Of a stretch of DNA of 64,000 nucleotides, positions 1,111 through 58,392 are shown piece after piece. Both the position numbers and the translations under genes were made by a program. The stretch's first letter is position 1. Every line of letters starts with the position of its first letter. Source of the stretch: Antedon mediterranea (taxonomy: Eukaryota > Animalia > Echinodermata); assembly GCF_964355755.1 (NCBI RefSeq), contig NC_092674.1, forward strand, positions 3,844,001-3,908,000, in the 5' to 3' direction. The notes under the pieces were generated by a model that was not told the DNA's origin, made no database searches, and saw nothing but the letters and a program-made list of their open reading frames with translations.

Positions 1111-1142
<32 letters not shown>

Positions 1143-24400: not shown

Positions 24401-25508
24401 CTATACCACGCGCGCGTCATTTGATTGACTGATCCATGTGTGGTTTAGTATTTGATTGATAGTCAGTCGTTTCCTAGGATCCTTTCGCAGAATAGATTTG
24501 ATTAAGTCTGTAGCTTCTCTTGAAATATGGCTTAATTTAGGGAATGGAACACGGTCTAAATCCATCGTTGCGATAATTCTGTTGATGTTGGAGTCATCGT
24601 ATGGCATCGATCCAATAATCTGAAATAAAAGTCGTGTGATGATAAAAGAAAAACGGTGCGCGTGACGTAAGAATTGCTCATTAATGTGATATTTTTTGAC
24701 AATATATATGGTTTTAGAAAGGTGATTTTCTTTCTATTATGCCGACTCAAATCTGCTTATGAAACCAATGCCCTTCTTTGCATCATGAAGAGGAGAGGAA
24801 TGGTTTTTATTAGTAGGCCTATACTTCATAAAAATAATAGTATAATAATATTACCATAACGAAAAGCACTACCCCTATACTCCAGATGTCGGCGTCGTGA
24901 GGGTCATACGCAATCCCCTTCAGTATCTCAGGTGACGCGTAAGCCGAGCTGCCACAAAACGTCATACAAAGTCGATCAGCGTCACTCCATTGACGCGCAA
25001 ACCCAAAGTCACTTATTTTCACCGTCAGGTTATCGTGCAATAGAATGTTCTCGCATTTAAGATCTCGGTGGAAATACCCGCGTGAGTGTAAATAGTTTAC
25101 AGCCGTAAGAATCTGGCGAAACATGATTGTTGCGTGGCCTTCTTTAATGTACCTATGCTTCTGAATGTGTTTAAGAAGATCACCCCTGTAAGCCAGCTCC
25201 ATCAGAATACAGATTTTATTTCTGACATAAATGATATCGAGTACTTTTGTAATATTTGGGTGACTGATTTCCTGGAGAATATCCATCTCGCGCGGAAGAA
25301 ACTTACTGAAGTAATCGTCTTCAATTCTTTGTCGGGTGATTATTTTCATGGCTGCTGGTGTGCGTAAATTACTTAGAAAAACTTGTTTAACTTTTGAATA
25401 CGTGCCTTCGCCGATGGTATTGCCAATTATGACGCCTTTTGATTTAAGATCAGTTACGTAAGACTGTTCACAATCGGTAGGCCTAGTAGGCCTTGTAATT
25501 ATAGGCAT
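24401..25508 (-). CDS. TSSK: Testis-specific serine/threonine kinase (TSSK family), 2 exons, ~290 aa
   Basis: Exons 25508-24855 and 24619-24401 with a phase-0 GT-AG intron. Motifs: IGEGTYSKVK, AMKII, KFLPREMDIL, HRDLKCENILL, DFGFAR, TFCGSSAYASPEILKGIAYDP, DIWSIGVVLFVM|IIGSMPYDDSN. The specific TSSK paralog is not determined. Confidence 0.92.
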
Positions 25509-26362
25509 CCTATGTTCTTGTAGGCCTATTCAAAGGTATAGGCATAACACCATCAGCATTCAAATGTTCTTTGTTCGATGTGTTTATGTTTTCGTTGCCT
25601 CAGTAGGGCCTAATAGTAAATTGTTACCCACGACGTTATATGAATATTGCAGTGGTCTGAAAAAGATATCTTATTAAGAACCACCACCAATAATAATAAT
25701 AAAGTTGTTGCGCAGCAACCGGAATACGCTAAATACGCGCTAAATTACAGAAAGACGCGCCTATTTTGTTCTTCCAGCACGGAGAGTACTCATACTTTTT
25801 AAAGTTTGAACCCGGAAAGCGGGTTGTAGTATTATTTGGTAGTGTAGTTTGAAATCTGTGTGTAATATAATTTAAAAACGAAACAAGTAACATAAATCTA
25901 TACGAACACATTTTTTATTCTAAATAGTACAGTATATAGAGTATTTGTCTTTCACGTATAATTTATTCTGCCCTTGTGATGTAATTGGGATAGGTTTTTT
26001 TTTATTTCGCATGTTGACCGATTATATGACACTAAAATTAAATTCTTCTTGAATTCCTAAAACCACCCTCCCATTCTAGATGTAAAAATAACTACCTAAA
26101 AACAAGCGCTTCTTACGTTACTATCAATTCCTAAAGGATGCACTATAGGCCTATTGTTATTATTGTAAAGCCATGAAAATGTTATAAGTGATAACAATCC
26201 ATTCGGGAGGAAGAAGTACATCCGTTGTTACGTCGTACGATATCATTTGCTGTCATACTTGTAATAGCCTCAAATCTATTATAAACTCTCTGCCTTGCTT
26301 CACATCTTTTCTATTCCAACCTCCAATGCTCAAACATTGATTTAGATCCCCCCACTTCTTAC

Positions 26363-29300
26363 CTAATTTATTATCGTTTCTTTTTTTTTCTGACTTTTCA
26401 AAGCATCTGGACTACAGCTTCTCTTATTAGTTGTTAGTGGTTTTAGTTTAGAAGCTACATGATGTAGACCTATAATATATGTAAGGTCTTCAATAAATTC
26501 TTTCGCACCATCAGCAAATACATTCTTTGTTTTTTCAAGATGCATGATTCGAGACCATTGGTCTGTATACTCATTATGTGGTACGACATACAGGTATCCC
26601 ACCTCTTTTGCCTCCTCTGGTGAAAGTACTTTCCCCATTTCTATTAGTGTTTGTCGATAGGCCGAGAATGATGTAACTTTGCCATCCTTGTTTGCATCAC
26701 TGAGTGATTTCACCTCCTCTGATCATGTCGATTATAACTTTGTAGTCTGTACGCTTCAGTTTGCCAGAAGCCATTAAGTCATCAAACAAGATCTTCATGT
26801 TTTGGTGTTTTGTTGCGTCATCTATCTCGTTAGTTTTTCTCCTTTTTGGTACCATCTTTATGTCTATAGTATCATTGTCCTAAACTCCTTGGAGGTTAAC
26901 TCTAAAGAAAGAAGTTACTTATAATCTTTAAAATAGGCCTTTGAGGTCTTGTAAGCTATATATCTAAAAAAAACAGCAAAAAAAACCCCCCCAAAATAAG
27001 GTTAATAAACACATAAAAATGCATATATTACAAACATTCTTAACCTTTAAAACGATGATTATGATAAACGAAATCAATAGATACCTTTAGGTACTGATGG
27101 CACATCTGTTTCTGCATCCTTACCTGCTTAACAAACAAAAACTACAGTTTAAAAATAACAATAGGTGTCCGGGTTCGACATCAGGTAGTGGAACTTTAAC
27201 CAGGCAAGAGTGAATCACACTTCCCTGCTTTAACGAACTTACTAATAAATAGATTAAGATTTAATCATACAGTATTTACCTTGTTTCGTTGATGACGTCG
27301 ATTGTACATTGTCTTTAACCTCTTTAAATGTTGCCAGTTTATCTGTAATAAAGAATAAAGATAAAATACTTACATAAAGTGGTATCACGTACAAAAACAT
27401 CAATACAGCATTTTAAGTAAATATAAATATAATTACGTACAGACAGATCATGTGAGACGCTGAGGACGATATGTATTAGTAAAGAATGTTGTTTTACATA
27501 TCAAGTATTTTCTCTTTTTCTGCGGGGTTGAGTTTTCCTACAAACCGTTTTATTTTCTCTTCTGTTTTGTCTAAAAGTAACTCTTTCTCCAGGTGGAATA
27601 CTAGATCCCAGATATTTCCAAAGCCGTATTGATCTAGTTTGTAGAAAGCTTGTAAGTTACGCATATCTTCATCTGTCACCTCTCTCAGCGCTGCAAACAA
27701 GACCTTTCGATAAGGTGACAATCCTTTTCCCCTTTTGACACTAGCCGAGTCAAACTGTTTCATTACCCCAAAAAAATTGCAAGAAAATGTTTTTTGATGA
27801 ATTACAATAAAAAATGGTCTAAAAAAACATATATCAAAAGTTTACCAAAATCGGACTGCCGCAAAGGTTCAAAATTTGACGTTAAAAAAGATGGCCGCCA
27901 ATTTTTGAAAATCGGTAACCGCTTGTAGTAGACAGCTGTATTTGGTGTCAAATTGTTCAAAATATATATGCTTATATTTACACTTTTTGAACATTTTGTT
28001 GAAACATGACCGGAAATTCCATTTTGTGACCTTTCCATATATGACATAAAAAAATGTTCATATCTACGTAACTAAAAATCATAGAACCTTGATATTGGTG
28101 TAAAAATGTTCAGAACATACATATTTATATTTACTGTTTTTGAAAATTTTGTTCAAAAATAATCGAAAACACAAGGTTTCCCTTTAAGATGCCTGTAATA
28201 TATATACATACAGGATCTGGAAGAATTTCATGTGAAAATGGATTAAAGGAAAGGCAAATGGCAGTGAAAACAATCAAATGCAAACAATGGCAAAGGAACT
28301 TGATTGTGTAACTATACAGTTTGAAAATAATGTAAAAATAATAGATGCAAGAGAAAAAATATCACGATACACACCAAGAAATGTCAACAAAAGGAAGAAT
28401 TAAAACCATCTACTGTATAGCACATTGGCCTCTGATATGATATCAATGAGTTAAAAGCTGAACAGTTACAGATTAAATTAAGTAATTGGAAGCAATAACA
28501 AGGGAGAAGTGAAAGGAAGGAGGTTAAAGGGGGAGAAAGTTGTAAGAGCTGTGGTGCAATAATGAAAACAAAATATAATGGAATTCTTCTTGAACATGCC
28601 TCAAATATTGAGCAAGCAAACTTGAAGAAGTGAAAAAACAGAGTGATGAAGACGTAATATGAACATGGACATTACAATGATAAAAATAGTTAAATAATGG
28701 ATTTATTAAACAACAAAGTATATTGTTGGAGCTAGAAATGCTATAGACTACAGGTGTTTAACAACTTGGAAGCTTGGAGGCAGAGCCGTTATCAAAAATA
28801 CACATGGATTAGTTGTCATCCTCGCAAGAACTGCTTGACAAATCCAATCATACATTACATCTAGATGGAACGTCTAAAAAAGAGAAAACTATGGCACAGT
28901 TGGAATTGTCACGATTCGAACATCTACCAAAAGTTATGGGAAACTGGGAACAATGATGGCAAATCAACAGATGAATTAATTATCAAATTTGAAAGTAATC
29001 ATTCACCACAACCATTATACAGGCTCTGCTGAAGAATCTACACCGCATCCACTTTCTCTGCAAATAATTTCCGACGAAAGACAAAAACTGTGATCAAAAT
29101 CCAAATACTGTACACAAACCAAAGATGACACAATTAAACTTCTCGTTACAAAATATGGCAACAAGAATCATAAAAAAATCTGAACTCTCCATCGAAATGT
29201 AAATGTGCATCAAATATTCCCATTCCAAGATTTTTTTTTGGAAAGTGTGTGGAGCATTTATACGAGGACGAAATTACAAAGGAGCAGAAGAGTGGTATGT

Positions 29301-30445
29301 CGGAACAAACAATTAAACTGAACGTCCACAAACCTGACAGTTATTACAAATAAAGATTCCTCTGTAATCAAGTTAGGAATAATTTAGGTATTTTATATTT
29401 AACAATTTTTACAAAACACTACGTTTGAATCTTCAACACGCTGTGTGTCTAAGTGCGTAAAAGCTGATTACAGGCTCTGCATGAAAATATCATTCGCGTA
29501 AAACATGCCTCATGTACATGTATGTGAAAATATTTCATGCCATAAGTATCAAAGGTCACGTCAAAACCTTATGTTTTCGGTTATTTTTGAAAAAAAATGT
29601 TCAAAAACAGTAAATATAAAAATATGTTCCGAACATTTTGACACCAATATCAAGATTCTATGATTTTTAGTTACGTAGATATGAACATTTTTTTTATGCC
29701 ATATATGGGTCAAAGGTCACAAAATGGAATTTCCGATCATGTTTCAACAAAATGTTTAAAAAGGGTAAATATAAATATGTATGTTCTGAACATTTTGACA
29801 CCAATATCAAGACTCTGTGATTTGCAGTTACCTAGATATATAAACGTCATGCCGTATATGTCAAAGGTCACAAAATGGAATTTCCGGTCATGTTTCAACA
29901 AAATGTTCAAAAAGTGTAAATATAAACATTTATATTTTGAACAATTTGACACCAAATACAACTGTCTACTACAAGCGGTTACCGATTTTCAAAAATTGGC
30001 GGCCATCTTTTTTAACGTAAAATTTTGAACCTTTGCGGTAGTCCGATTTTGGTAAACTTTTGATATATTTTTTTTTAGACCATTTTTTATTGTAATTCAT
30101 CAAAAAACATTTTCTTGCAATTTTTTGGGGGTTAGGGCCTATATTTTCATATTTTGACCCGACTACACCACCTTTCGTGTATGCGTCCACGATATTTTGT
30201 GCAGGTTTTAACTGTGTCACTTCGGCAATTTCTGATAGAAGGTTCACTTCAGTTGGACTTATGTCTCCTCTATCTTGAAGTGCATTGAATAAATCAAATG
30301 CATTGATTGCATTGAGCTAACAATGAATTACTCAGACAGTCATGAAGAAGAAATTTTAACGATTTAATTCTATCACCGCTATATTCTTCATTCAGTTTAC
30401 TAAGAAAGTCTCTAAAACACATTTCGCTATCTTGTCTCCTTTTAG
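26363..30445 (-). pseudogene. Quadruple-DED gene copy A (disabled)
   Basis: Exon 1 (FRDFLSKLNEEYSGDRIKSLKFLLHD...NLLSEIAEVT / GLSPYRKVLF...IWDLVFHLEK) is frameshifted near 30295 and split by a 2.4-kb TE. Micro-exons lie at ~27345-27281 and ~27126-27085. The last exon 26901-26363 has deletions, including loss of VTDTRGVV. Confidence 0.8.
27766..30166. mobile_element. DNA transposon with ~400-bp TIRs and decayed internal coding sequence, inserted in DED copy A
   Basis: 27767-28180 is the near-perfect reverse complement of 29567-30133 (the right arm has an internal duplication). The right terminus reads tagtcgggtcaaaat on the minus strand and the left terminus is truncated. Stop-riddled coding-like interior (e.g. 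TLHLDGTSKK at ~28850). Confidence 0.8.
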
Positions 30446-30679
30446 TACATAAATATAACTTATCCAACAATCTGTTTTTCTTCAAACGTATACAAATATA
30501 ATATATAAATCACTGGAGATATGGTCTAAATATAGCTGTATATTTACAAAGAAAACAACACATTATGTGGAATGATTACGGTAACTTATTGTGGAATGTT
30601 GATGAGTTAACTTATATGAACCGAGGTCTACATCGTGTAATATATACAACGAGCATGTTATTCTTTCAAATTAGCTTCT

Positions 30680-32064
30680 TTACTGTAAATTCTTTTTCAC
30701 CATTAGCAAATACATCCTTTGTTTTTTCAAGATGCATGATTAAAGACCATTGGTCTGTATACGCTTTCTTTGATATATTATACAAACCTCCCAACAAGTT
30801 TGCCTCATCTCTTGAAAGTGCTTTCCCGAGTTCCATAAGTTTTTGTCGATAATCCGGGAATGACGTGTTTCGTCGTCCTTGTTAGCATCACTGAGTGATT
30901 TAACATCGTCTACTACCCCACGAGTTTCTGTCATTTTGACCATGTCGATTAGTATTTTGTAGTCTGTACGTTTAAGCTCACCAGTTTTTGTTAATGCATC
31001 AAACAAGCTTAGTACATCATTGTATTCTCTGGTTCTATCTTATCCTTGAACAGCAGTTTGAGCATGGTTATTTTATCTCTGCCTTGGTACCATTTTGATG
31101 TCTTTGATAACATGTCATTAAACTACTTGTCTAAAGAAAGTGAATTAAAAAATTGATGTAATAAGTATTCTAGGTTATTATGATACCTTTAGGTGGTGAT
31201 TGCCCATCTGGTCTTCTTGTAATTCTATGCATATCTGCTAAAACAAAAATACAATATTGTTTTCATACTAAACGTTTGCAATTCAAATGTCAACAGCAAC
31301 CATTCAAACAAGGCAGCCATCGGGCAAGCAATCAATCAATGAATTATTCTTAATGATGTTTACCTTTTCTGTTGATGACGTCGATTGTGAATGTGTTCTA
31401 GTCTCTGCAAGTGATGACAGATTTGCTGTAATATTAAAACAAGTAAAGATTAAACTTGCAGAATATATGTTCATATTGCAAATGACAGACCAATTGAGAC
31501 GTTGTTTGAGAACAGATAATAAGTATTAGGTACTGTTGTTTTATACATACATATTCTTTCTTTGGCTGATGAGTTGATATTAGATGGAAACCTTTTTCTT
31601 TTCACTTCTGTATCGTCTAATCGTTCCTGTTTCTCAAGGTACAATACCAGATCCCAGATATTGTCGAAATCTTTGTGACCCAGTTTGTAGAAATCACGTA
31701 ACCTGGGCAAATCATCAATTGTCACTGCCATCAGAGCTTTATGAAATGCTTTCCGGTAAGGTGAAAGTCCCTTTCCCTTTTTAGCATTGTTTATGTACTT
31801 GGGTATGACATCTTTAGCTGACTTCAAATTTGTCACTTCGGCAATTTCTGACAGTAGGTTGATTTCGGTGTATTTTATGTCGCCAGACTCATGGAGTTTA
31901 TTGAACAAATCAAATCCAGTGATATCTTTACGGTCTAAGAGTGAGAGGTGTAGGTAATCAAACAGAAGAAATCCTAACAATCGAAATTTATCACCGTCAT
32001 ATTTGGCACTAAGATCTCTAAGAAATTCTTGAAAGCGATCTTCGTTTTCCTGTTCATTTTCCAT
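30680..32064 (-). pseudogene. Quadruple-DED gene copy B (exon 1 open; downstream exons frameshifted and 3' truncated)
   Basis: Exon 1 32064-31551 is open and close to copy D. Exon 2 31425-31364 is 62 nt versus 63 in D. The last exon from ~31130 has two 1-nt deletions and loses similarity at ~30685. Confidence 0.75.
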
Positions 32065-32895
32065 TTCTGTTAGAATAATGGAAAGTGATGGTAAACCTTA
32101 TTAATTGATTTAAAAAAAACTAGGCATACGAGTCATTGATGAGAGTTTGCGGAGTGCAGGGTGCGATCCCCGTGTGACGTGGATCTAACTTTCAGCATCC
32201 TCCCCAGATATGTTTATCAATCCACTGATGGTGCTTAGTTAAACATATTATATGAACAGACAAAAGGCTATTTTAACTCGACAGTTCGGTGGAATCATTC
32301 ATGAAAGGCTTGGTTTTCAACAACAGGTTTAGTAATCAACAAATTATTCATACAGTATGTCAGACAATTTGTTTTTATTTCGAAATTACAAAATATATTC
32401 AATTTCGAAAGTAAAGTATTGAAATATTTAAAGTGCTCAGAAAATAGCACACATATAAGACAGACAAAGAAACTATTATGGCTTCACTGACATTGCATGC
32501 GGGTAATACATTAATAGGTCAATACTGTGTTTGTGTGTTTTTATTTTTGAATTAACTGATGATGGAATCATTGAGAAAAACTATATTTTAACCTAAAAAA
32601 CAATGAGCATGTACAGTAACTACATAATTATAATGGAATTTCATTATAAAGACTTTTTATGTACTTAATATAAGTTATGTATATTTTGAAATGTGTGTGT
32701 ACATTTTCGTTTTATATTATACCATCTCCACATGCGAAATGTCTTAATCTGAGTACAAGTGTGACTACACTATGCAGAAAGATTGTCATATATTATGACA
32801 ACATTCTATAGGCTAAAATCGTATAGGTCTATTATGAAATACAACAAATTGGCTTTCATAGTAATTTTGTTTCCCTTTGTCAATCGTCATTCTTC

Positions 32896-33790
32896 TTATC
32901 GTTTCCTCTTTTTCGTTTTTCTTGGGACTTTTGTATCAATGCTTCTCTTATTTGTTGGTGTCTTTTTAAGTTGTGACGCTACATGGTGTAGATTTATATT
33001 TTCAAGGTCTTGAATAAATGCTTTCATATTCGCAGAACTGAATTTATCTTTTTTTTCCCCAAGAAAAATGATTAGAAACCATTGGTCTATACACTCATCA
33101 TTTGGTACTTCATACAGATATTCCACCTTATTTGCCACATTTTATGAAAGTACTTTCCCCATTTCTATTAGTGTTTGTCGATAATCTGAAAATGATGTGA
33201 TTTTGCCATCCTTGTTTTCATCACTGAGTAGTTTCACATCCTCTACAACTCCACGAGTATCGGTAACTTTGACCATGTCGATTAGATATGTGTAGTTCTT
33301 ATGATGTATTTTTCGAGACTCCTTTAAAGCATCTTGTTGGGTCTTTATGTCATCCGTCAACAGCAGTGTTTGAGCATAGTTAGTTTGTTTCTGGCTTGGT
33401 ACCACTCTGATGTCTGAATTAACAGGATTTTAAAATTCTTGCGGTTTAACTCTAAAAGGAGACGGAACAAAATTACTAAATGTAGGCAGCGCATCTGAAT
33501 TAGCAGGTAACATAAACTTTATTTACTACAAATTGTGAAATTGCTTCTAAATGTTATTATGGTAGGAAACAAAATAATGGAATACCTTTAGGTGCTGGTT
33601 GCGCATATACCAGAAAAAATACAATATTCTGATTTTAACCGATATTTAATTTTAAAAAACACAGAAAATAGTTATTCTTTATACTTTTAGGACAAAATAA
33701 GAATAAGCCAAATAGAGTTATAGAGTAAATCTTTGGCTTGATTATTTAGTCACAATTTACCTTGTTCTACTGACGACGTCAATTGTAAAT
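32896..33790 (-). pseudogene. Quadruple-DED gene copy C (5'-truncated duplicate of copy E)
   Basis: Only part of exon 2, exon 3 and a frameshifted last exon remain (LIDMVKVTDTRGVVEDVKLLSDENKDGKITSFSDYRQTL...KVPRKTKKRKR*). The 5' part is replaced by the duplicated TSSK block at ~33790. Confidence 0.8.
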
Positions 33791-35640
33791 TTAAAAATAT
33801 CAAACCCAATATTTTTTAATTTCCGCAATCAAGACTTTCATTTCTTTTTGCAAAATAAAATATTTACTATCAAATGCATTTTTGAATTAATTTGTTCAAT
33901 ATTTTGATGTTGGTGTTACTGTGGTCAAATACACGCCCATATTACATGCGTGGTCAAAATGTTATGAGACATCGGCTGCCAGTCTAGAGAAGTACAGTAT
34001 AGGCCTATGACTAAAATAATGATAGGAATTTGCTAATTTGTTTCATTTTATTTCGGAAATCGGTAGCGCCCTGCTGATCCTATAAATATCGAGTACGCGT
34101 AATTGAGGTGCTATACCACGCGCGCGTCATTTGATTGACTGATCCATGTGTGGTTTAGTATTTGATTGATAGTCAGTCGTTTTGTAGGATCCTTTCGTAG
34201 AATAGATTTGATTAATGAAACACGGTCTAAATCCATCGTTGCGATAATTCTGTTGATGTTGGAGTCATCGTATGGCATCGATCCAATAATCTGAAATATA
34301 AGTCGTGTGATAAAAGAAAATCGGTGCGTGTGACGTAAGAATTGCTCAATAATGTGATATTTTTTTACGATATATTTTTTTTAGAAAGGTGATTTTCTTT
34401 CCATTATGCTGATTCAAATCTGCTTATGAAACCAATGCCCTCTGATCTTTCGAGGGTGCATCATGAAGAGGAGACGAATGGTTTTTATTAGTAGTCCTAC
34501 TTCATAAAAACTAAACAATTACAATTATTATCTTAAAGAGGGCTACTTACCATAACGAAAAGCACTACCCCTATACTCCACCAGATGTCGGCGTCGTGAG
34601 GGTCATACGCAATCCCCTTCAGTATCTCAGGTGACGCGTAAGCCGAACTGCCACAAAACGTCATACAAAGTCGATCAGCGTCACTCCATTGACGCGCAAA
34701 CCCAAAGTCACTTATTTTTACCGTTAGGTTATCATATTCTCGCATTTAAGATCTCGGTAGAAATTTAAGATCAGTTACGTAAGACGTAAGGTAGGCCTAG
34801 CTAAGTAGGCCTTGTAGTTATAGGCATCCTATATGTTCATGTGGCCTATTCAAAGGTCTAGGCATAACATCATCAGCATTCAAATGTTCTTCATTCGATG
34901 TGTTTATGTTTTCGTTGCCTCAGTAGGGCCTAATAGTAAATTATTACCCACGACGTTATATACAAATTGCAATGGTCTAAAAAATCTTAAGAACCACCTA
35001 TAATAACAATAATTGTTGCGCAGCAACCGGATTACAAGTTGCGCGCTACATTACAGTAAAAATACGCGCCCATTTTGTTCAATTCCAAGACACGTGGCGT
35101 ATTAGGTGGTCTAGTACTTTCTAACGTTTTAAAACTTAAAGAGGGAAAAAAGCGGTGTTTATGTTTTATTTGGTAGTAGTGTAGTTTGAGATCTACGTGT
35201 AATTTAAAAACGAAACAAGTAAAAGACATCTATACAAATTATAGGTAATAATGAAATTTACACATTTTATTCTGAATATTACAGAATTATTATGATTATT
35301 ATTATGACTTTACACATTATACCTTTTGTCTGCCTTGGATAGGATTTTTATTCTATTAACTTCCTGCAATGATTAAACTTATGAAAGAATTAAATAACCT
35401 ACTGATTTAGTGTCGATTAGATGACACTGATATAATACATTATTCTTAATTTCTCAAAATTTACCCCTGATGGATGGAAACATAACTAACTATAGCTAAA
35501 AACAACAAAGCAATGTACAAGCACTTCTTACGTTACAATTAATTCCTAAAGGATGCACTACTTTTATTATGTAAAACAATGAAAATGTTAATAATGATGA
35601 TAAAGATAATAAGAAGTGTATACCGTTGTCATGTAAAGAT
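33787..35640 (+). repeat. Segmental duplicate of 19505-19690 + 24237-26260
   Basis: Colinear similarity from aaatttaaaaatatcaaac through the TSSK gene and its upstream region to ttcctaaaggatgcacta. Confidence 0.85.
34111..34827 (-). pseudogene. TSSK pseudogene (duplicate of 24401-25508)
   Basis: Near-identical exon and intron sequence, but with a ~370-bp deletion of the kinase N-lobe, a deletion just after HRDLKCE, a WW duplication and a deletion in exon 2 (~34215). Confidence 0.92.
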
Positions 35641-38600
35641 ATTTGCAGTTAATAAATCAAACCACATAATATTCTCACGAGCTAACAATGAAATAATAAT
35701 AATAAGATTTTTATAGCGCACATACCACTTCAGAGTGCTCAAGGCGCTTGGAGAGTTCGGAAGAAGAAAGAAATATTAACCGTTTAACTGGTAAAACCAG
35801 GCTTAAAGCTCTCTTGGGCTTATTTATGTTAGAAGTTAATATCAGTACCACGCCTATTTATAATATATATATATCAAAACCACATTTACGTTGTGCATAG
35901 GCCTACCCTACAAAAAATCAACTGCGACTCTTCCTGTATACAATCGGTAATAATTGCATCGCGTATACTAATTCGCAATAATTGCTCTAATGATATATAC
36001 AAGAGAAAACAATTCTGTGTACATGTACAAGTTACTACATGGTTAAATAATTATTAGTTCTATATTATTACGGGCTAACATCATAATATATAGATTGCAT
36101 CAAGAAGTTTGTTTCTGTTCCAACACCGTTAAAGTTTACCAAGGCTAGATTTTGGTCTAAAATTACTATAGTACGTTGTGTAATTATGCTGGATGGATGC
36201 TTAATACATTAAATATACGTACATCAGTTCTCTAATGATAGTGTTCTTATTACCAAAAAAAAAAAACATTACCAAGGCTATAGATTGAATTTAATGCATG
36301 TACAATGTGGTCTCATATTATTTGTTACATTGTGTTATTATGCTGGATCGATCCTTAATACATTAAATAATCAATTCTCTGTTGATTATCATGTAAAAAA
36401 ATATATATTGCCTTATTATTATTTTTATTATTATTACAATATTGTAACTATGGTTATATACTTGACTCAATAATATTACTTTTTTCCTTTGTTACTAATG
36501 CCAATACTATTATTGTTAAAAATTGATTTTATAAGAAAAAAGAAAGGAAATAAATTTTAATTGAATGAATGTTTAGTACACAACTTACAATGCACATACA
36601 ATGTCAACGTGAATCATAATTATAATAAAATGCGCATAATACATAGCATCTCACCATTCCGGTACCTATCAGTATAATCATGGACCATGGTATAATAATC
36701 CTAGAGATAATTAATATTATAAAACACCTAAATAAATTCCTGTCATTTGATTAGACGGTTGTGGGTCACATGGCGTGCAATAATACTTTTTTCGTGTTTG
36801 GAAATTTAGTTATTAGTTTAGAAAGATTAAAAAATTACTAGATCAATTGAGGGCAATTTAAGAATGAATATTATTTATAAAGATGAAAACGCATTGTATT
36901 GTGGGAGTTTGTTTGATGTCGTGTACAGTTAGGAGCTTAAGGTTATAAAAACCAGGATATACGTAAATTAAAATAGATTCAGAACCTTATATATATTGTC
37001 ATCATTATAATTGCCGCGACGTTCCCTCTCCAAACTGATATGGTCTATAATAATAACATAAAATAATATACGATAACTCAATTTTACAAACGGTTTAAAG
37101 ATCCACCGATTTTCAAATTTGTCATTATTATGTGAGAGAATGTTCTCCCAAAAACAATTGACCGAACCAAATGGAAGAAACCACACATCTAATAATTTAA
37201 GTTGTTGCTCGTCAGGTAGCCACCTGATTATAAATTAATAATAATAGGCCTACAATTAGCTGGAAAATTGAGAGACTCGTTTCGTTAAGAATATCGTATA
37301 TAGCCATAATAAGTGATCTTGGCCCTTTATCGGCAGCACGGGGGGTAAGGGGTCACCGCCCGTAAGCGGCCACTTTTCCAGGTCCCGAGGGTGGCCACTT
37401 ACGGGAGGTTCAACTGTATTTAAAAAAACAATTATCCTTAGTTATGCATAGAAACAGGTTCTAAGATAACATAAATAATACATTTTGACATAACTTGACC
37501 CAACAAATGACCCTTTCACAAGAGTCAAGACTTTCTTTTTGAGATTATTAGGATTCAGTATTTAAAATAAATTTGGCAAAAACTACAAATGTAAAACTAT
37601 GTAGAAAAAATGTTTTGTATTTATGAAAAACCCTTTTTTTGAAATGTTCGCATAGAAACAGTTACTATGGTAAAATGTTGACCTCAAAATGAATGAATTT
37701 ACAAGGTCAAGTTTGTCATTAATGGAATGCAGTAGAAGTAAAATTGAGAAAAATTACAAATGCAATCAATTCTTTGTATTTATAAAAACGCCATTTTTTA
37801 CGTTTTTTTAAAAATAACTTTCCTTAGTTACACATAGAAATGGTTGCTAGAGTAACACTATAGGTAAAATATGAAAATTGTTGAGAATTGTTATGAACTA
37901 TCTTGTAAATTTTGATCAAACATTAATAGTTGTAGTAAAGTGGGGACCTATCCTGTTTTGCATTCTGACCCCTTTTGACCTCAAATGACCTATTTACAAG
38001 GTCAGATTTTTTGGGAGGTCTTTCTGTATCTCTTTACACAAAATAGATTTAGAAATTTATAAAAACCATTGACGCAATTATTTCCAAGTTTAACATTATT
38101 TTCCATCAACTAAATATTTCAATGCAAAATACTGTTTTTCTGGCAATTAATTGAAATAAACCTGGCAACACATTCTCTTATTTTATCTAAACTATTCGTA
38201 TGACTCTAGTAGCATTATGACAAGCCACATATACATTTTATTATTGGATTAGCCATATTTAAATTGTGTTTCATGTGTTTTGTTTGTTGATATTTTGTTA
38301 TATTTTTTGTATTTTTCGTATTTTCCTGGCAACACAAAACCTATGTACGAAATTTACCCCAGTGTTTTTTTCGTGATTATTGTTGAAAAACCTATTGACT
38401 ATCAAATTAAAAAACCTCATTGATTTAAAAACACCACTTTGGAAGTTATAGGTACGTTTATGAGGTATACTTTTATAAAAAAATTTTTTTTATAAACACC
38501 CCTTTTTAAAATAATGGTATCAACCAAACTCCATTTTGTAATTTATTTTTTTTCTACATTAAATGGAACTCAATACATGTTGTTTACACTGCTATAAACA

Positions 38601-38814
38601 AAAACTGTATACTGTAAGTATTTTTGGTTAAAATAAACCTAATTGTCAACCTCCTGTAATATAAACTTGAAAACTATCTAAACACTAGCAAAGTTCTGAA
38701 CTTCTTTACTATGACAGTTAATTTATTTAAATGTTCCCAAAGCCATTTTAGCTTAAATCTTAAAAACGAATTTAGAAAACGACACACCTCGGTCGATGAT
38801 TCGAACCTGATTTT

Positions 38815-38966
38815 TCACTTTTTGTTTAAAATAAATTGTTTTCGTTGTCTCCTTTTTGGTCTTTTTCGAACTTTCGTGCTACCTCTCTTATTTTTTGGTT
38901 TTGGTTTCACTTTAGAAGCTACATGGCTTAGACCTATATCATTAAGGTCTTGAATAAATTCTTTCG
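38815..38966 (-). pseudogene. C-terminal fragment of an additional DED-cluster paralog
   Basis: Minus strand reads KEFIQDLNDIGLSHVASKVKPKPKNKRGSTKVRKRPKRRQRKQFILNKK*, paralogous to 39020-39180. Confidence 0.7.
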
Positions 38967-40628
38967 TCGCGACGACGTTCCGCAAAATATGCGTTTTGGC
39001 CTAAATTTGGGCCGCAAAACATAAATGTTCTTCTTACGTTTTCGCTGTCTCTTTTTCTGCTTTTTTTTAACTTTAGTGCTACCTCTTGTCTTATTTGCTG
39101 TTATCGGTGCTGCTATCGGTTTAATTTTTGAAGCTACATGGCTTAGACCTATATCTTTAAGGTCTTGAATAAATTCGTTGGCACCATTAGCAAAATCTTT
39201 TGTTTTTTCAAGATGCATAATTAAAGACCATTGATCTGTATACGCTTTCCTTGGTACACAATACAAATCTCCCAACAATTTTGCCTCATCTGGTGAAAGT
39301 ACTTTCCCCATTTCCATCAGTTGTTGTCGATAATCTGAAAATGATGTGATGTCGCCGTCCTCATTTGCATCACTGAGTAGTTGAACGTCCTCTACGAGTC
39401 CACGTGTATCCGTCACTTTGACCATGTCGATTAGTATTTTGTAGTCTGCACGCTTAAGTATACCAGTTTTCGTTAACGCAGCGAACAAGCTTCGTACATC
39501 TTTGTGTTTTTTTGGTTCTGTTGTATCATTGAACAGAAGTTTTAGCATGGTTATTTTATCTCTGCCTTGGTACCATTGTGATGTCTTTGATAACATGGCT
39601 TTAAACTCCTTTGCTAAAAAAGTGAATTAACAAATTGATGTAATAAACCTGTATTAACTAATTGATTGGTTTTACATCACAGGCCTATCGTTTGAAACAG
39701 AACATTATTTGAACATATAGGAGAAACAATTCATAATAATAGGTATTCTAGGTTATTATGATACCTTTAGGTGGTGATCGCCCATCTGGTCTTTTTCCAT
39801 TCAGCTCTGCTAAAACAAAAATACAACGTTATCGTCATACTAAACGTTTGCAATTCAAATGTCAACAGAAATCATTTAAACAAGGCAGCCATCAGGCAAG
39901 CAATCAATCAATAATTATTTTTAATGATGTTTACCTTTTTCTGTTGATGACATCGATTGTGAATGTTGTCTAGTCTCTGCAAGTGATGACAGATTTGCTA
40001 TAATAATAATAAAACAAGTAAAGATTAAAATTGCAGAATTTATGTTCATATTGCAAATGACATTGTTGTTAGAGAACAGATAATAAGTATTATGCACTGT
40101 TGCTTTATACATACCTAGTCTTTCTTTGGCTGATGAGTTGAGATTAGATGCAAACCTTCTTATCTTCACGTCTGTAGAGTCTAGTCGTCCCTGTTTCTCC
40201 AGGTGGAATACCAGATCCCAGATATTATCGAAATCTTTGTGACTTAGTTTGTAGAAATCACGTAATCTGAGCAAATCATCAATTGTCACTGCCATCAGAG
40301 CTTTATGAAATGCTTTCCGGTAAGGTGAAAGTCCATTTCCCCTTTTAGCATCGTTGGTGTACTTGTCTATGACTTGTTTTGCTGATTTCAAATTTGTCAC
40401 TTCGGCAATTTCTGACAGCAGGTTGATTTCGGTGTATTTTATGTCGCCAGACTCATGGAGTTTATCGAACAAATCGAATACAGTGATATCTTTACGGTTT
40501 AACAGTGAAAGGGGTAGATAATCATACAGAAGAAATCTTAACAGTCGAAATTTATCACCTTCATATTCGTCATTAAGATTGTTAAGTAATTCTGTAAAGC
40601 GATCTGCGTTGTCCTGTTCATTTTCCAT
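38934..40628 (-). CDS. Quadruple death-effector-domain-like protein copy D (intact, 4 exons, ~433 aa)
   Basis: Exons 40628-40115, 39997-39935, 39809-39765, 39613-38934, all with phase-1 GT-AG introns, 1302 nt open. DED-like blocks: RFTELLNNL..LLRFLLYDY..FDLFDKLHESGDI..NLLSEI; LSPYRKAF..IWDLVFHLEKQGRL; MLKLLFND..SLFAALTKTGIL..ILIDMV; FSDYRQQLMEMGKVL..SLIMHLEK..LKDIGLSHVASKI. Ends in a basic tail. Confidence 0.85.
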
Positions 40629-40845
40629 TTCTGTTAGAACAATGGAAAGTGATGGTAACTATATCAATTGGTTCGAAAATCTACACATGAGTCATTTATG
40701 ATAGAATTGCCAGTCTTAGAAATGTAATGTTATAAATGAAAATGTACACATTATTTTTATCTTCATGTGATAATCCAGTTTGCAACCTAAAAGTCTTCAG
40801 TTATTATTATAATTGGTCCGGCACTAATATATGACAAATATTACC

Positions 40846-41330
40846 ATTTTTAGTCGCATCCGCGTGCAACGCGACTCTACAGCTCACTATGTCGGTCGGT
40901 TGGTCTGTCGGTCGGTTGGTCGGTAAACACTAACTTCAGCAATGAAAGCAATATTATGTTCAAAATGTAAAACTATACAATTTTATCAAAGTTCTCAAAC
41001 AAAGCACAATCTTATAATGTAATATACCATTTTATCATTATATACCAAATCTCAATTTTTAATACTGAATGTCAATCTTTATATCGTTTTATCTCTGTAA
41101 TATAAATTGTCTGTATACATATTTGTTTTATCTAGATTTAGAACACAATAGCAACATATTTTATATAATCTTTTAACCTCAATCTGTGTAATATCACTTA
41201 AATATTCATTGATAGATAGACATGTATAACCTTTACCATATTGTTTATTTATTGCAATAAAAGTGGGTTGCCCCACAAAAGAGAAAAAAAACTTCAGCAC
41301 GCGACTGCAGCCATTTTTATGACCTTTTTT
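40846..41330 (+). mobile_element. Helentron-associated (DINE-1/HINE-like) non-autonomous element
   Basis: tttttagtcgc...gcgactctacagctcactatgtcggtcggttggtc microsatellite, with 3' gcgactgcagcc..tgaccttttt. Absent from the paralogous region near 32130. A shorter inverted copy lies at 44335-44455. Confidence 0.55.
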
Positions 41331-42137
41331 TATCAGCTGTAGATTAAAAAGCCCTGATAGTAACAAATAAGTACCATTGATAATTTTGTTCTTTCAAAAC
41401 ACTTTTCTGGGTAGTGGACGCGATCGCAACGTTGGCATCCAACTCCCAGCATCCCCCTCCCCCAGTGGTTTATCAATGCACTGATATGTTACTTAGACGA
41501 CATTGAACACACGGAAAAGTCTTTCAGTTTTAGTAATTAACGTCAGACAATTTGTTTTTATTTCGAATCTATAGAAAATGAAAATATATACATAATATTA
41601 ATTTCGGAAGTAAAATATTGAAATATCTGTAATTCTCAAAAAACAGCCATACCAAAAAAACACCATAGACAGAAATTATAGCAGTTTTTTTCATGTATTT
41701 TTCAACAAAATATACATGAATAATAAACACATTTAATAAAATTCTTCTTTTCCTCACTGTTCCTTTTTTCTGCCTAATATGTTTTGTTTCTGCCAAATAT
41801 TTGGTATAAGGTAATATGTTGACAGATCAGTACAGTATGTTTGTGTGTTTTTATTTTTGAATTATCTGAATGATTGTTTAATGAAAATCATTGAGAAAAT
41901 CAATAAGCTAACCTAAAAAGCAATGTACATTTTACAGTAACTACATAATTATAATTGTTATAAAGAGTTTTAAATCATAAGATAAATATTTTATATATTT
42001 AAACAATTATTTATACATAATATTTTCGTGTTATTTACCATACCACCCCCGCATGAGAAATGTCTTTTTCTGAGCCTGATTACGATTCAAAATTGTATAA
42101 TAATTTAACAAAAACTGAACGTGAACTTTCATTCTTC

Positions 42138-43773
42138 TTATCGTTTCCTCTTTTTCGTTCTTCTTGGGATTTTTGTATCATTGCTTCTCTTATTTGTTGT
42201 TATCGGTTTAAGTTTCAAAGCTACATGGTGTAGACCTATATATTTTAGGTATTGAATAATTTCTTTCGCACCATCAGCAAATACATTCTTTGTTTTTTCA
42301 AGATGCATGATTAAAGACCATTGGTCTGTATACGCATTCTGCGGCACTTCATACACATTTCCCACTCGTTTTGCCTCATCTGGTGAAAGTACTTTCCCCA
42401 TTTCCATCAGTGTTTGTCGATAAGGTGTGAATGATGTGATTTTGCCATCTTTGTTTGCATCACTGAGTAGTTTCACATCCTCTACAACTCCACGAGTATC
42501 GGTAACTTTGACCATGTCGATTAGATATTTGTAGTTCCTAACATATATTTTTCGAGACTCCACTAAGGCTTCGAACAAGCTATACACATCACTGTATTCT
42601 GTTGAGGCTTTTACGTCGTTCGTGAACAGCAGTTTGAGCATAGTTAGTTTGTTTCTGTCTTGGTACCACAGTGCTGTCTGGATTAACATGACGTTAAAAT
42701 TCTTGCGGTTTAACTCTAAAGGAAATGGAACAAAAATTATTAAATATAGGCAGCGCATCTGAATTTCCAGGTTGATTAGATTATGACTATTGTATTAATA
42801 ATTTACATATTTAATTTACTACAAATTTTGAAATTTCTTCGCAATGTTATGATTGTAGGAAACAAGTAGTTTCGAATAGAATACCTTTCGGTTCTGATGG
42901 CGCATATACTCCTGTAAACAAAAATACAATGTTATTCAATTTCTAACCGATATAGACACATTTAATACATAAACCACAGAAAATAGGTATGTTTATACTG
43001 ACAAATAAAGCTAAAAAAACAAGCCAAACAGAGTAGAGTAACTCTTGGACTTGATTATTCACAATTTACCTAATTGCTCTACTGATGATGTCGATTGTAA
43101 ATTTTCTCCGGTCTCTGTTAATGTTGACAGATTACCTTAGAAAACAATGTAAATAATAATTATTTTTTATAAAACAATAATGTCTACACATACCGACAGT
43201 TGTTCAATCCCGTTAATTTTTTTTAATATTAAAAAGGAATGAGGTTTTAAACATACTCAATTTGTCTTTTGCTTTTGTGTCGCTGAGAATATCTGCAAAC
43301 TGTTTTATTTTCTCTTTGGTATTGTCTAGCCGTCCCTTTATCTCCAAGTGGAGTACTAGATCCCATTTATCGTAAACGCAACATTTTTTTAGTTTGTAGA
43401 AATATTGTAATTTGCGAAAATCGCCAGGTTGTAATTCCTTTAGAGCTTCAAACAATGCTTTTCGATTAGGTGGAAGTGTTCTTCCCCGTTTGACACCGTT
43501 TTCGTAATCTTTGATGACAAGTTTAGCAGCCGGCACATCTGTCACTTCGGCAATTTCTGATAGAAGGTTTACTTCAGGGTGTTTTATAATGTTTTTCACT
43601 CGAATTTCATTGAATAAATCAAATGCAATAACATCTTTTTCTTTTAACAGTGATTCTTTGAGATAGTCACAAAGAAGAAATCTTAACCATCGAAACTTTT
43701 CACCTCTATATTCGTCACTAAGATTCTTAAGAAATTCTGTATATCGGTCTTTTTCTTCCTGTTGATTTGCCAT
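42138..43773 (-). CDS. Quadruple death-effector-domain-like protein copy E (intact, 4 exons, ~395 aa)
   Basis: Exons 43773-43257, 43135-43070, 42911-42885, 42715-42138, all phase 1, 1188 nt open. Same four DED-like blocks as copy D, ending KIPRRTKKRKR*. A 5' UTR splice acceptor lies just upstream of the ATG (~43787). Confidence 0.85.
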
Positions 43774-44334
43774 GTCAGGTTGGGCCTAACACAAAAAAGC
43801 GATAGAAAATTTAGTGGTTTTTCATTAATTTTTGTGTTACATTATGGTATGTTTTGATCATATAAAATACACATAATCTTTCTGTACACATTGTTTATCG
43901 CCGCGAGGTTTTACCAAGGTAAGATCAGTGGTAACAAGCAGCAACATATTCGTCACACTGACGATCTATGCAAAGATAATTTGCAAAAAAAAAACCGAAA
44001 ATGGAAAACTAAGCGGAAAGTGAGGGAAATGCTTACTTTCCGTAATGGGCTTCGATGGTTGTTTGCATAGGTAAAACACATATTTCGGAGCAAGTCATGA
44101 ATAATTGATAATATTTTCACCAAGATCATCACATTGAATCACGTGTACATAATCTTAATCCTGTTCTTAAGTATCATGCATATAAGACTATGATTATCTT
44201 TCTCCAGTATCTATTGCATAAAAACGAGGAAAATGGAGCCGTAAGAAGAATACATTTCAGGTAAACACCCGTATAGAAATGAAATAGTATGAACAAGAAA
44301 ATATGGACTAAAATACAATAAATACAAGATGATT

Positions 44335-44455
44335 TAACAAGGCCATATACATGACTGCAGTCGCATGCGCAAATTCGAGTTAGTGTTAGTATTAGTTAGT
44401 GTTAGTACCGACCGACATAGTGAGCTATAGAGTCGCGTTTGCACGCGACTAAAAC
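44335..44455 (-). mobile_element. Short inverted copy of the HINE-like element
   Basis: Reverse complement ttttagtcgcgtgcaaacgcgactctatagctcactatgtcggtcggt...gcgactgcagtc...ggccttgtt. Confidence 0.55.
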
Positions 44456-45389
44456 ATTTACTAAACTATAACGGGCTCACATGATTCTACAACAGCACGA
44501 AATAGTAGAATGCGCCTAAAAAATCGTTTGGTACTCTTCCTATATTATATATAATAATATGTCCACTGAAATGTCTGTTCTACATAAAAAGTTCACGATA
44601 AGAATATTTCAAAATTAAGAAAAACATGTTATTGGAATTTAATACCATACACGCAAGATTCTTTTCTCGAAATCACATCATTAGGGTATTTATGATGTCG
44701 CCTTTCAGTAGTTTAAAAGCTATCTTTCTGATCGAAAACAATTATGTTCTTTTTAACATATAACATAAATAATTTTTGTTGTTGATGCTTGTCGTGGTGT
44801 CCCACATAAGGCTCAATGTTTTTCATTTATTTATTTCCACTAAATAACTATTGAAAATTGTCCTGTTTTTATTTTTTACTTCCTCTTCCTCCTGCTATTT
44901 GGACTAGGATAGGCCTACTGAGAACGAAGAGCCATCAGTATAAAGATAGTATGCCTAGGCCTACGTCTCATACACTGTCAGCCTCTAACTAGTAGAGACA
45001 AGGTGAGTCCTCTATTCATTTTTTTTTCGCGTTATGACGACGTCGAAAAATAAGACAGGAACGTTCAACGCTAGAAATCAAATGTTCGCGCTATCGTTAG
45101 CATTTCATTTACCGTTTTGATTACGATCAATCGGGAAATTACCTCACAACAAACGATCGTTGTTGAACTTTTAACGATTAACTACAGTATGATCACCGTC
45201 TACTGACAGGAAAACAGGCTTTAACGTCGAGTAGCGTCGATTGCCGTCGATTATTGCACCTTTTCCTGTAAATCGCCGACGTTTTGTATCGTCAAATAGT
45301 ACCTTTTCATGTAAATCGTTAAAATTTCAATGTTTACGTAGAAGATCGCCGATTATTGTTAAGGATAGCGTCGAATAACGTCGACTGGA

Positions 45390-45645
45390 AGATGTATTGT
45401 CCCCCAAAAACATGAAAAATGAAGATTAATTAAATCAGACTTTGAATTAGTTATTTTGTAGTTTTAATCAAGTTAATCACTTATAAAATGACAACAAATC
45501 CATTTGCTGGCAGCCAATTTGATTATTTTTTTGCTTTAAATTACAGTTTTTTTCTAATTGTTGGTCAAAGTGGATAACTATTATGCGACATTCAAATGGC
45601 ATATTCAAAATTGTAATAATAATTTTTCAGAAGCACAATACATCT
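45390..45645. mobile_element. TIR MITE (agatgtattgtccc family, Kolobok-like)
   Basis: agatgtattgtcccc ... cacaatacatct|ttaa. Related partial copies at ~10160-10413 and ~11993-12100. Confidence 0.55.
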
Positions 45646-47694
45646 TTAAGGGGAGGGGGTTGTTTAAACAAAATATAGAATTCGACAATAAGCGCTCTTT
45701 TTAGAGCATATTTATTGTCCCCGGTCTCTCCTGGTTATAACATTATCTTACATTATCTTATCTTTCGAATATTTTCATTAGGATCGGTGGATTACTGTAA
45801 ATAAAAACAAAATCTTACCTTCGTTCTTTATCCTCTACAATCGAACAGAAAATGACTTTAACCAGCTAATCTTATTAATATTCTTTATGGAGATTGTTGA
45901 TTGTAACTATTGATAAATCAATGTAAAATAATAACAAGAAATCACAATAGCGATCCTTTGTATTAATTATTATTACGTTTTTTAACGTTATAAAAACGTA
46001 ATGCAATTTTCTTTTCTTTTGTTTTTTGTTTTTTTAACTCCTTGTTATTGTATGGAATTGCTCTGTATTCTTTCCTTTTGTCCCTTTTTTTGTTAGTTGA
46101 AGATGTAAACGTTTCACCTATTGGATATTGTGACGTCATCATAATGGCCACCCGAATATAAAATAGGATTTTTTTCTTCGTCATAGCTCATCACATTTAA
46201 TAGAACTTATCCGTATTTCATTTTTACGTAAATTCTAATATTTTCTTGCTCAATTATCTTTCGTATGAGTTATAAATATTTCATTTTTGATGACGTAATC
46301 ATGTCAACAAATTTGAATAACTTGAGTCGGCTAATTTGTATTATTACAGTATATTTTTTATTTTATTTTATTTATTTATTTTTTTTTTTTAAACCAGAAA
46401 CAACAGCAGAAACAAATCCGCCACTTACAGCTTGGTTTCTATCTCTATAGTCATGACTAAAACTTATGGAAGCTCTTGAATTGTAGGTATGAATTTCGTG
46501 TAAACAGTTTGCCTATCGGATTTTATGACGTCATCATATGGCCAGTTGATCGGATTTTCAACTTTTGATAGTTCATAACATTTAAAAGAGCGCTCATCAC
46601 AATTCTCGTATCCGAATTTCTTCAACATTTGAATATGTTGCTTCCCTGTGACGTTTTGATATCACCTACAATAAAATAATATTTTCTTAAGAAATTAGAC
46701 ACCATTGTTTTTTCACAACCTGGCATCTTGAATATGCAAAAGATCTGGCCACTAAAAATTCAGTCACTTACAACTCAGTGTATTTATAATGTTAACTTTG
46801 ACCGATGTGCTTCATACTTTAATATCGTTTGTTCGTTTTTGTTGTTGGGGTTAACCTCTGTATATATGTTTATTACTGTTTCATCATAAAAAGAATTTTC
46901 AAATAAAAAATATCTTGTATCTTTGCATTAAAGATTTACTTAATATCAATAATGTTTAATTTCCCGTCATTGGCGTCCTAGTGTGTATTTACAAATAACT
47001 TCATAACGGCATAAGGTTTTAAAATTCAATTAAGAGAAAGAAATATTTGAAGCTTTCACTTGAAATATTTTGCATTTATTTAACATTTTAGGAGGCCTGC
47101 CACTATGAAAACGAAACAACAGTAAAAAAATCGGTAAGAAGTTTAATAACATTTAAGTCAAAGATATATTTTCACGTTGTTTGGTCGTATTACATTTTTG
47201 TCTTTACTACATTACTGTACTGTAAACTGCCCATATTATGATGATGGACAGGTTTTCTGTTCAGTACTTTCCTTGAATGATTAACAAGGATAAAAGGAGT
47301 AACTACTTATTTATTGATTTGATGACATATAGGTTGACAGATAAATTAATTTTTGTACTGAGATTGTCAAACCCACTCCACCCATCCTAAACAAATACTT
47401 TAAAAATAACTACCTAAAAACACCAAAGCAATGTACAAGCACTTCTTACGTTACAATTAATTCCTAAAGGATGCACTACTTTTATTATGTCAAAAACAAT
47501 GAAAATATTAATAATAATTGATAACAATACATTGGCGTAAGAAGAAGTACATATTGTAATGATATAATTTGCTGTCAAACTTGTAATAGCTTAACTATTT
47601 AAGATTGTGGGAGAGAAACCCGGACACCACCCTTTGTCTGGCTTCATACTTGTTTATTCCAACCTCCAATGCTCAACCCACGTCTTAGGCCTAC

Positions 47695-48517
47695 CTAATC
47701 AGCTCTTATCGTTTTTTTCTTGTCTTACTTTTCGAAACATCTGGACTACAGCTTCACTTATTTGTTGTTATCAGTTTAGAAGCTACATGGTGAAGATTTA
47801 TGTCATTAATGTCTTTAATAATTTCTTCCGCACCATCAGCAAATACATTCTTTGATTTTTCAAGATGCAAGATTAGAGACCACTGGTCTGTATATTCATC
47901 ATCTGGTATGTCATACAGGTATCCCACCTCTTTTGCCTCATCTACTGACATTACTTTCCCCATTTCCATCAGTTGCTGTCGATAAGGTGTGAATGATGTG
48001 ATTTCATCGTCTTTGTTTGCATCACTGAGTAGTTTCACATCCTCTACAACTCCAAGAGTATCTGTCACTTTCACCATGTCGATTAGAACTTTGTAGTTTT
48101 TACGCGTAAGATCTCCACAACCCTTCAAAGCCTTGAGCAAGCTGGATACATCTTTGCGTTCTTCTGCATTTTGTATACTGTCCTTGAACAGCAGTCTCAG
48201 CATATTTATTTTGTCTCTGACTTGTTACCATTTAGCTGTCTTGAATAACATGATCTTGAATTTCTACGTTTTGCATCCTGCACTTTTGTCAATTGGACAA
48301 TTTCTGATAGAAGTTTCACCTCATTATGTTTTATGTGACCTTCCAATTGAATTTCGTTGAATAAATCAAACGCAGTGACATCTTTACGCGTTGGGATATC
48401 TAGATGGTCAAAAAGAAGACATCTTAACCATCGACACTTTTCACCGCTATATACGTGATTAAGTCTGTAGAGGTCTTCTCTAAATCGGTCTTGATTGTTT
48501 TTCAGTACATTTGCCAT
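47695..48517 (-). pseudogene. DED gene copy F (internal deletion, frameshift, nonsense codon)
   Basis: MANVLKNNQDRFREDL..WLRCLLFDHL..FDLFNEI..KLLSEIVQLT is fused out of frame at ~48265 to last-exon sequence FKIMLFKTAKW*QVRDKINMLRLLFKD...FTPYRQQLMEMGK. DED2 and exons 2-3 are missing. Confidence 0.8.
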
Positions 48518-58344: not shown

Positions 58345-58392
58345 TAATGCTAATAGTTTTTCTGTACTTAAATATTTATTTATATGGTTTTA

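Follow-up and report, generated by a model that had tools for sequence, protein, structure and literature searches.

Predicted proteins with four death effector domains in a gene cluster of the feather star Antedon mediterranea

What would a protein do that consists of two tandem pairs of death effector domains (DEDs) and a basic tail? The question is raised by a gene cluster of the feather star Antedon mediterranea, located at 26.4-48.5 kb of a 64,000-nucleotide stretch of contig NC_092674.1 (assembly GCF_964355755.1, positions 3,844,001 to 3,908,000), which was analysed as a whole and is called the window below. The cluster comprises six minus-strand copies, A to F, of which only D and E are open. 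That D and E each encode four DEDs in two tandem pairs (tDEDs) is well supported by profile comparisons and predicted structures.

The DED assignment rests on profile and fold evidence because single exons remain under the Pfam DED cut-off (15.5-26.5 bits versus 35.9, with a match in six of nine frames of the DED region). A search with PF01335 gives a divided picture, in which the exons fail individually while the paralog P0002 passes (47 bits). A profile of six sequences aligns without a break to residues 3-155 of caspase-8 (E 2e-4; best match E 3e-5). The two halves of D, and likewise those of E, are mutually homologous (none of 300 shuffles was as good; z 16.8 in D and 10.8 in E). In the RefSeq protein of E, Pfam detects DED only, except for one match at 0.34. 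Single-sequence searches of the PDB with D exon 1 and D exon 4 returned nothing significant, and a search of a phage collection returned no match.

The AlphaFold2 model of the RefSeq protein of E (13 sequences; mean predicted local distance difference test, pLDDT, 72.8, with only two of five models above 60) consists of two helical modules with a disordered linker and tail, pLDDT falling below 50 at residues 214-237. In this predicted model residues 44-216 match the caspase-8 tDED (Z 16.9, root-mean-square deviation (rmsd) 2.8, 166 aligned) and residues 244-412 the KSHV vFLIP (Z 13.0, rmsd 3.1, 157 aligned). Exon 4 of D, modelled alone from 30 sequences (pLDDT 92.8), was compared with 48,161 chains in an unbiased search; its best match has Z 16.6 and rmsd 2.2 over 158 residues, and the nine best matches are all tDEDs (Z 12.8-16.6), ahead of single death folds. 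Foldseek E-values for the models were all above 0.001, and the nearest clusters in the ESM Atlas, v-FLIP-like and DED clusters at 0.90, are a lead only. These models, with Z 13.0-16.9 against the tDEDs of caspase-8 and vFLIP, agree with the four death folds that a preliminary description, made from the letters alone, had recognised in the two large exons. Its statement that no caspase domain is present holds as well: QACxG and [I/L]SHG motifs were sought in D and E and are absent, and no caspase or death domain follows the DEDs, as exon 4 stops after the basic tail, where the RefSeq protein of E also ends.

A six-frame scan of the window with a tandem-DED profile found matches confined to the minus strand, at 26,480-48,496. 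Five exon-1-type and six exon-4-type stretches account for copies A to F, together with a short repeat of the 3' tail behind D (Table 1). The locus had been described as six co-oriented paralogs and a fragment on one four-exon plan. Co-orientation holds, as does the number six if C, which has no exon 1, is counted; however, the complete set of four exons is found in A, B, D and E only, in F only half of exon 1 remains and the linker exons are gone, and the "fragment" is the tail repeat behind D. D and E splice into open frames of 433 and 395 amino acids, as had been predicted, by three introns each with GT/AG sites, all in phase 1, and their products are 56% identical. The spliced product of E corresponds letter for letter to residues 36-430 of XP_071949796.1, an A. 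mediterranea RefSeq entry named "uncharacterized protein". The large exon 1 is hardly the first exon, as had been assumed, because a splice acceptor precedes it in B, D, E and F and the first 31 codons of the RefSeq model map to an additional exon upstream of E. The final ~34 residues of D are a read-through beyond a stop codon that is kept by A, C, E and F; DNA contigs of sequencing runs X2 and X5 match the window at this lost stop.

Evidence on the predicted junctions comes from run X1, which we take for RNA by guess, as no run is on record as RNA; it also covers intergenic DNA, and depths were not used as a measure of expression. A contig of 862 nucleotides (depth 20) from this run passes from exon 1 into exon 2 and, by way of 14 other letters, on into exon 4. 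The intron-type ends fall at the coordinates of D, and the DNA-like run X2 has neither joint. The junctions are thus seen in a B/D-like paralog rather than in D or E themselves: among the rows listed, the contig carries the letter of B at 20 of 26 differences in exon 4. Its joints imply that the family is spliced from the first tDED through to the second.

Four of the six copies (A, B, C and F) are broken. Copy B duplicates D at 87% DNA identity, C corresponds to E, and part of a kinase gene is found again at the same offset of 8.5-9.7 kb, which indicates that a block of ~9 kb (kinase piece, B, C) recurs as kinase piece, D, E. The cluster gains and loses copies, in line with the birth-and-death evolution suggested for it. 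The inverted-repeat element that interrupts exon 1 of copy A is likely a non-autonomous DNA transposon. A 431-nucleotide contig of run X1 follows the start of copy F to the deletion point (window 48265-48530) and continues with 165 other letters, hinting at another haplotype with an undeleted F.

A profile of the family, searched against 1.84 billion representatives, led to 220 protein clusters; the family counts given here are those among the 150 listed, and the paralogs are known from protein collections only. All 16 clusters for which the source was looked up, picked by architecture and not at random, are crinoid (12 from A. mediterranea and four from Anneissia japonica), which agrees with the lineage-expanded family proposed earlier; the caspase P0060 is outside these 16. 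Among the 148 proteins with a full unit 41 have between two and five of them, and 15 consist of a double unit standing alone, some of which may be partial models. Stand-alone four-DED genes occur on three contigs of A. mediterranea and also in Anneissia japonica. Domain partners in the 147 relatives scanned (cut-offs 1e-5 or 1e-7) are NACHT (22), Roc/COR (10), kinase (3), TIR (2), and Rel, RIG-I helicase and caspase (one each), and further tDED fusions involve ZU5, TRIM-like, TPR, MAM, ubiquitin and USP domains. The caspase, P0060, combines two tDED units (four DEDs) with SHG and QACQR catalytic motifs that are both intact. Tandem arrays (P0009, P0011, P0010, P0012) comprise five units, or ten DEDs, in an Anneissia NLR, four near-identical units in an A. 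mediterranea Roc protein, and four and three units in the others. The four-DED layout is not special to the cluster, as it recurs across relatives including NLRs and P0060.

Individual fusions comprise a RIG-I-like helicase in which a tandem DED replaces the two CARDs (P0115), a Rel-homology protein with an N-terminal tandem DED (P0071), a tDED-TIR-tDED protein (P0064), and kinase-tDED proteins (P0031/P0036), one of them with MAM. A paralog of 953 amino acids on the same contig as the cluster (P0002, XP_071950031.1) has two four-DED blocks in the order A-B-A-B of the two tDED classes introduced below; the eight DEDs could be those of one genuine protein or result from gene-model fusion.

The family is largely hidden from annotation because most of its units score under the Pfam cut-off. 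No crinoid DED proteins and no four-DED proteins were found in the literature, mostly open-access texts, although they could be contained in the supplementary tables of domains that accompany crinoid genome papers. Within this range no account of the architecture was found, in line with the preliminary description, and the crinoid tDED network has apparently gone undescribed so far. The tandem DED seems to be the principal signalling module of cytosolic immunity in crinoids.

The 203 tDED units split into two deep classes with support 1.0, A with 67 and B with 136 units. Exon 1 of the window copies belongs to class A and exon 4 to class B; a recent internal duplication of one tDED was considered as their origin and is ruled out, as the halves sit in different deep classes. 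Class A precedes class B in 14 of 15 proteins with both classes, nine of these being stand-alone A+B proteins, and six stand-alone proteins are B+B. The three kinase fusions are class A, the caspase, Rel and RIG-I-like receptor (RLR) fusions class B, and NLRs carry either class. In quick class trees with midpoint root, exon 4 of D lies in a subclade of 35 units (Shimodaira-Hasegawa-like approximate likelihood ratio test, SH-aLRT, 99) that holds the first unit of the P0060 caspase, and each tDED of this caspase groups with NLR tDEDs (SH-aLRT 99) rather than with its other unit. Several DED-only proteins stand beside receptor units (P0028 with P0041, P0054 with P0059, and P0094 among units of NLRs and the caspase), a placement expected if they are truncated copies.

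Neutral evolution is contradicted for one half of the protein only. In pairwise comparison of D and E the ratio of nonsynonymous to synonymous substitution rates (dN/dS) of exon 4 is 0.50 (confidence interval, CI, 0.32-0.78), and it is below 1 in the pairs D-E, D-F, D-A and E-A. The second tDED is thus under purifying selection of moderate constraint, as estimated from these sequences. For exon 1 the CIs reach 1 in most pairs (1.06 in D-E), and D and B are 89% identical in exon 1 versus 92-93% of aligned positions in the introns; selection on the first tDED is, by the same estimates, weak or mixed. Both D and E have stayed open at a synonymous distance of 0.44-0.52.

The surface of the predicted tDEDs bears on possible partners. 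The hydrophobic patch pointed out in the preliminary description is present (F32-L33 in exon 1 and L25-L26 in exon 4 of D; over the 203 units these residues are mostly hydrophobic) and is located in the first DED of each pair. The two DEDs of a tDED are described as packed together through a type I contact (PMC11874512), and because of this packing the patch is read as internal and probably faces the second DED, so that it makes no case for canonical FADD/caspase-8. Filament extension of caspase-8 is reported to use Phe F122 of the second DED (PMC11074299). The equivalent of this residue (FL motif, F122/L123) is Asp in both units of D and Tyr and Asn in those of E, and Phe is outside the eight commonest residues at this position in class A (which cover 64 of 67 units) and class B (112 of 136); the register was taken from the six-sequence profile alignment in class A and counted from the conserved YR in class B. 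The RxDL string (R-x-D/E-L) was searched in D, E, P0002 and P0003 without a match and occurs anywhere in 18 of the 203 units. The second DED still begins with S-x-Y-R. Canonical FADD/caspase-8, the partner originally suggested, is unlikely because the outward Phe and RxDL are missing; tDED sensors and the four-DED caspase are likelier. In 44 of 116 relatives the last tDED is followed by a basic motif resembling a nuclear localisation signal (NLS), versus 29 of 584 background windows, a contrast inflated by the choice of background from other, mostly folded parts of long proteins; the basic tail is by its recurrence a family trait.

We propose, with confidence evenly balanced, that D and E are decoys or caps which limit assemblies of the crinoid tDED network and turn over fast. 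As enzyme-less chains in which a flexible linker connects two predicted tDED modules and a basic tail follows, they would join the DED assemblies of the feather star's own tandem-DED sensors and caspases and, by joining, would limit them. Their target would be the crinoid network rather than canonical FADD/caspase-8, following the logic of cFLIP-S, v-FLIPs and CARD-only/pyrin-only proteins, and the basic tail would drive nuclear import. Binding, inhibition, an immune role and nuclear import are properties that we infer for D and E. This reading is favoured because copies turn over and because of the precedent of the CARD-only/pyrin-only proteins and of cFLIP-S, which is reported to end caspase-8 DED chains (PMC4819448). 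Several observations weigh against it. The D-E dN/dS of exon 1 is 0.70 (CI 0.48-1.06); the only spliced contig stems from a B/D-like paralog, neither D nor E; some DED-only relatives may be partial gene models; the window tDEDs have no supported receptor or caspase sister (exon 4 is nearest to ROCO-type units with support 85, and exon 1 is unplaced); and the fixed order of the two tDED classes suits an adaptor at least equally. Loss of the F122 equivalent is moreover family-wide, the P0060 caspase included. As a specific signature of chain terminators the lost Phe is ruled out, because caspase and receptors are likewise without it. When E (residues 36-410 of P0006) was modelled in complex with the P0060 caspase prodomain, without alignments, the score was 0.00, which speaks neither for nor against binding.

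A positive bipartite adaptor similar to ASC or FADD is possible, if tentative: its class-A tDED would join a class-A sensor and its class-B tDED would nucleate a class-B effector such as the four-DED caspase. The two deep classes of the halves, the low-confidence linker between them, the prevailing order of A before B including nine stand-alone A+B proteins, the sorting of kinases into A and of caspase, Rel and RLR into B, and the shared subclade of D exon 4 and the first caspase unit are all consistent with it. However, NLRs with either class and the six B+B proteins do not fit a clean division into upstream and downstream, and binding by class is an assumption. Core adaptors are typically single-copy, in contrast to a cluster with four of six copies broken and 56% identity between D and E, and such fast gain and loss would be unusual in an essential adaptor. 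An extension of the adaptor reading, which we regard as doubtful, would be a private two-class tandem-DED code of crinoids, used by NLRs, a RIG-I-like helicase, ROCO proteins, RIPK-like kinases, TIR and Rel proteins and the four-DED caspase, in which A+B proteins would be DED-only equivalents of ASC that link sensors of class A with effectors of class B and whose fast turnover would be driven by pathogens.

The broken copies, the duplicated block, the ancestral stop lost in D, and an exon 1 with dN/dS CIs that mostly reach 1 and with no more conservation than the introns between D and B would fit an alternative in which these genes are mostly by-products of a duplication-prone region: truncated mobile tDED copies under weak or no selection, of which D and E are just unbroken so far. 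We consider this quite unlikely in view of the constrained exon 4, the two frames kept open over their synonymous distance, one spliced paralog, and the intact four-DED paralogs and other stand-alone genes on three A. mediterranea contigs and in Anneissia japonica. The original proposal, regulation of the canonical FADD/caspase-8 filament in the manner of cFLIP-S, is very unlikely. The top profile and fold matches are indeed tDEDs of caspase-8, cFLIP and v-FLIP, the S-x-Y-R start is kept, and the caspase-8 FL motif is reported as dispensable for contacts with FADD and cFLIP (PMC11074299). Yet identity to these proteins is only 14-22%, RxDL and the F122 equivalent are missing, and the kin are crinoid receptor modules, with a caspase in only one of the 147 relatives scanned.

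Compared with known systems, D and E as decoys work at best like FLIPs, and membership of cFLIP, caspase-8 or DEDD fails on the features tested. With cFLIP-S, cFLIP-R and the viral FLIPs (MC159, KSHV vFLIP) they share a predicted tandem-DED fold without an active caspase (Z 13-15); unlike FLIPs, which have one tDED, they have two of different classes, a basic tail, no RxDL, the low identity given above and a multi-copy cluster. The prodomain of caspase-8/-10 is the best fold match of both halves (Z 16.6-16.9), with the first-DED patch and the S-x-Y-R start kept, but D and E have no C14 protease domain and have Asp, Tyr or Asn in place of F122. CARD-only and pyrin-only proteins (COP, INCA, ICEBERG, POP1-3), which are described as regulators of NLR or caspase assemblies (PMC3775265), are likewise death-fold-only, lineage-restricted and recent; D and E differ in being DED-based with four domains per chain, and their inhibition is putative. 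ASC and FADD resemble them in having two distinct death-fold modules, in D and E class A and class B on a flexible, low-confidence linker, and differ in that both modules of D and E are tandem DEDs and the copies are many and fast-changing. DEDD/DEDD2, given as a single DED followed by a TRADD-N domain (PMC8195603), share only a basic NLS-like stretch after a DED; D and E are not of this type because tDEDs fill both halves and nothing else would fit in.

Earlier work, in the parts considered, already describes the fold of tDEDs, decoys made of DEDs only, and fusions of DED with NACHT or RLR in invertebrates (PMC4558505, PMC2575513, PMC8662601, PMC8998645, PMC8195603), where the DED is a signalling module of cytosolic sensors in amphioxus, sea urchin, Nematostella, Patiria and Lingula (PMC2575513, PMC8662601, PMC8998645). 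The fusions described in those parts are without tandem arrays, with a single DED in Patiria RLRs, unlike the crinoid relatives with one to five tandem-DED units and stand-alone doubles. Reviews, in the portions available, give DED proteins one DED or one tandem pair. Two linked tandem pairs, a four-DED caspase and a ten-DED NLR would test DED valency against the threshold of filament nucleation or capping, and sensors, caspase and DED-only proteins together form a tractable set for the evolution of death-fold specificity codes and decoys. The importance rests more on the family than on the mostly dead cluster.

Table 1. Features of the DED gene cluster and the adjacent kinase sequences; coordinates are window positions, domain and coding assignments are predictions.
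Feature	Position	Strand	Remarks
Protein-kinase open reading frame flanking the cluster	24819-25529	-	Pfam Pkinase E 4e-53
Copy A (broken)	26363..30434	-	four exons present; exon 1 interrupted by insertion and frameshifted; exon 4 with two ~25-nt deletions
Inverted-repeat element in copy A exon 1	27765..30132	.	~2.4 kb; ~400-bp terminal inverted repeats, 91% identical; internal repeats
Copy B (broken)	30686..32064	-	exon 1 open; exon 2 62 nt (one base short); exon 4 with two 1-nt deletions, cut short
Copy C (fragment)	32896..33800	-	no exon 1; linker-exon remnants; exon 4 frameshifted; duplicate of E
Repeated part of kinase gene, between copies C and D	33955-35238		
D'	38816..38966	-	~130-150-bp repeat of exon 4 3' end (basic tail), directly behind D
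Copy D exon 4	38934..39613	-	class-B tandem DED, basic tail and ~34 read-through residues
Copy D exon 3	39765..39809	-	45 nt linker; alternative acceptor 3 nt on gives 42 nt
Copy D exon 2	39935..39997	-	63 nt linker rich in Ser/Thr
Copy D exon 1	40115..40628	-	class-A tandem DED
Copy E exon 4	42138..42715	-	class-B tandem DED and basic tail
Copy E exon 3	42885..42911	-	27 nt linker
Copy E exon 2	43070..43135	-	66 nt linker
Copy E exon 1	43257..43785	-	class-A tandem DED; ATG at 43773, acceptor 12 nt before ATG
Copy E upstream exon	~44037..44129	-	RefSeq model, 31 codons; predicted coding
Copy F (broken)	47706..48517	-	first half of exon 1 fused out of frame with exon 4 by a deletion; exon 4 with two in-frame stops

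The kinase frame that flanks the cluster is presumably of the testis-specific TSSK type. Elsewhere in the window, a multi-exon gene on the plus strand (~1-13000) has a Thioredoxin_14 match at 7773-8198 and a minisatellite inside (~6450-7380); we take it to be a gene for UDP-glucose:glycoprotein glucosyltransferase. Retroelement remains occupy 56172-60899 of the plus strand, beginning with a gag/protease-like open reading frame (recognised by eye), followed by what is left of a long interspersed nuclear element (LINE), namely an ORF1-like frame and disrupted endonuclease/reverse-transcriptase frames (RVT_1 E 6e-33).

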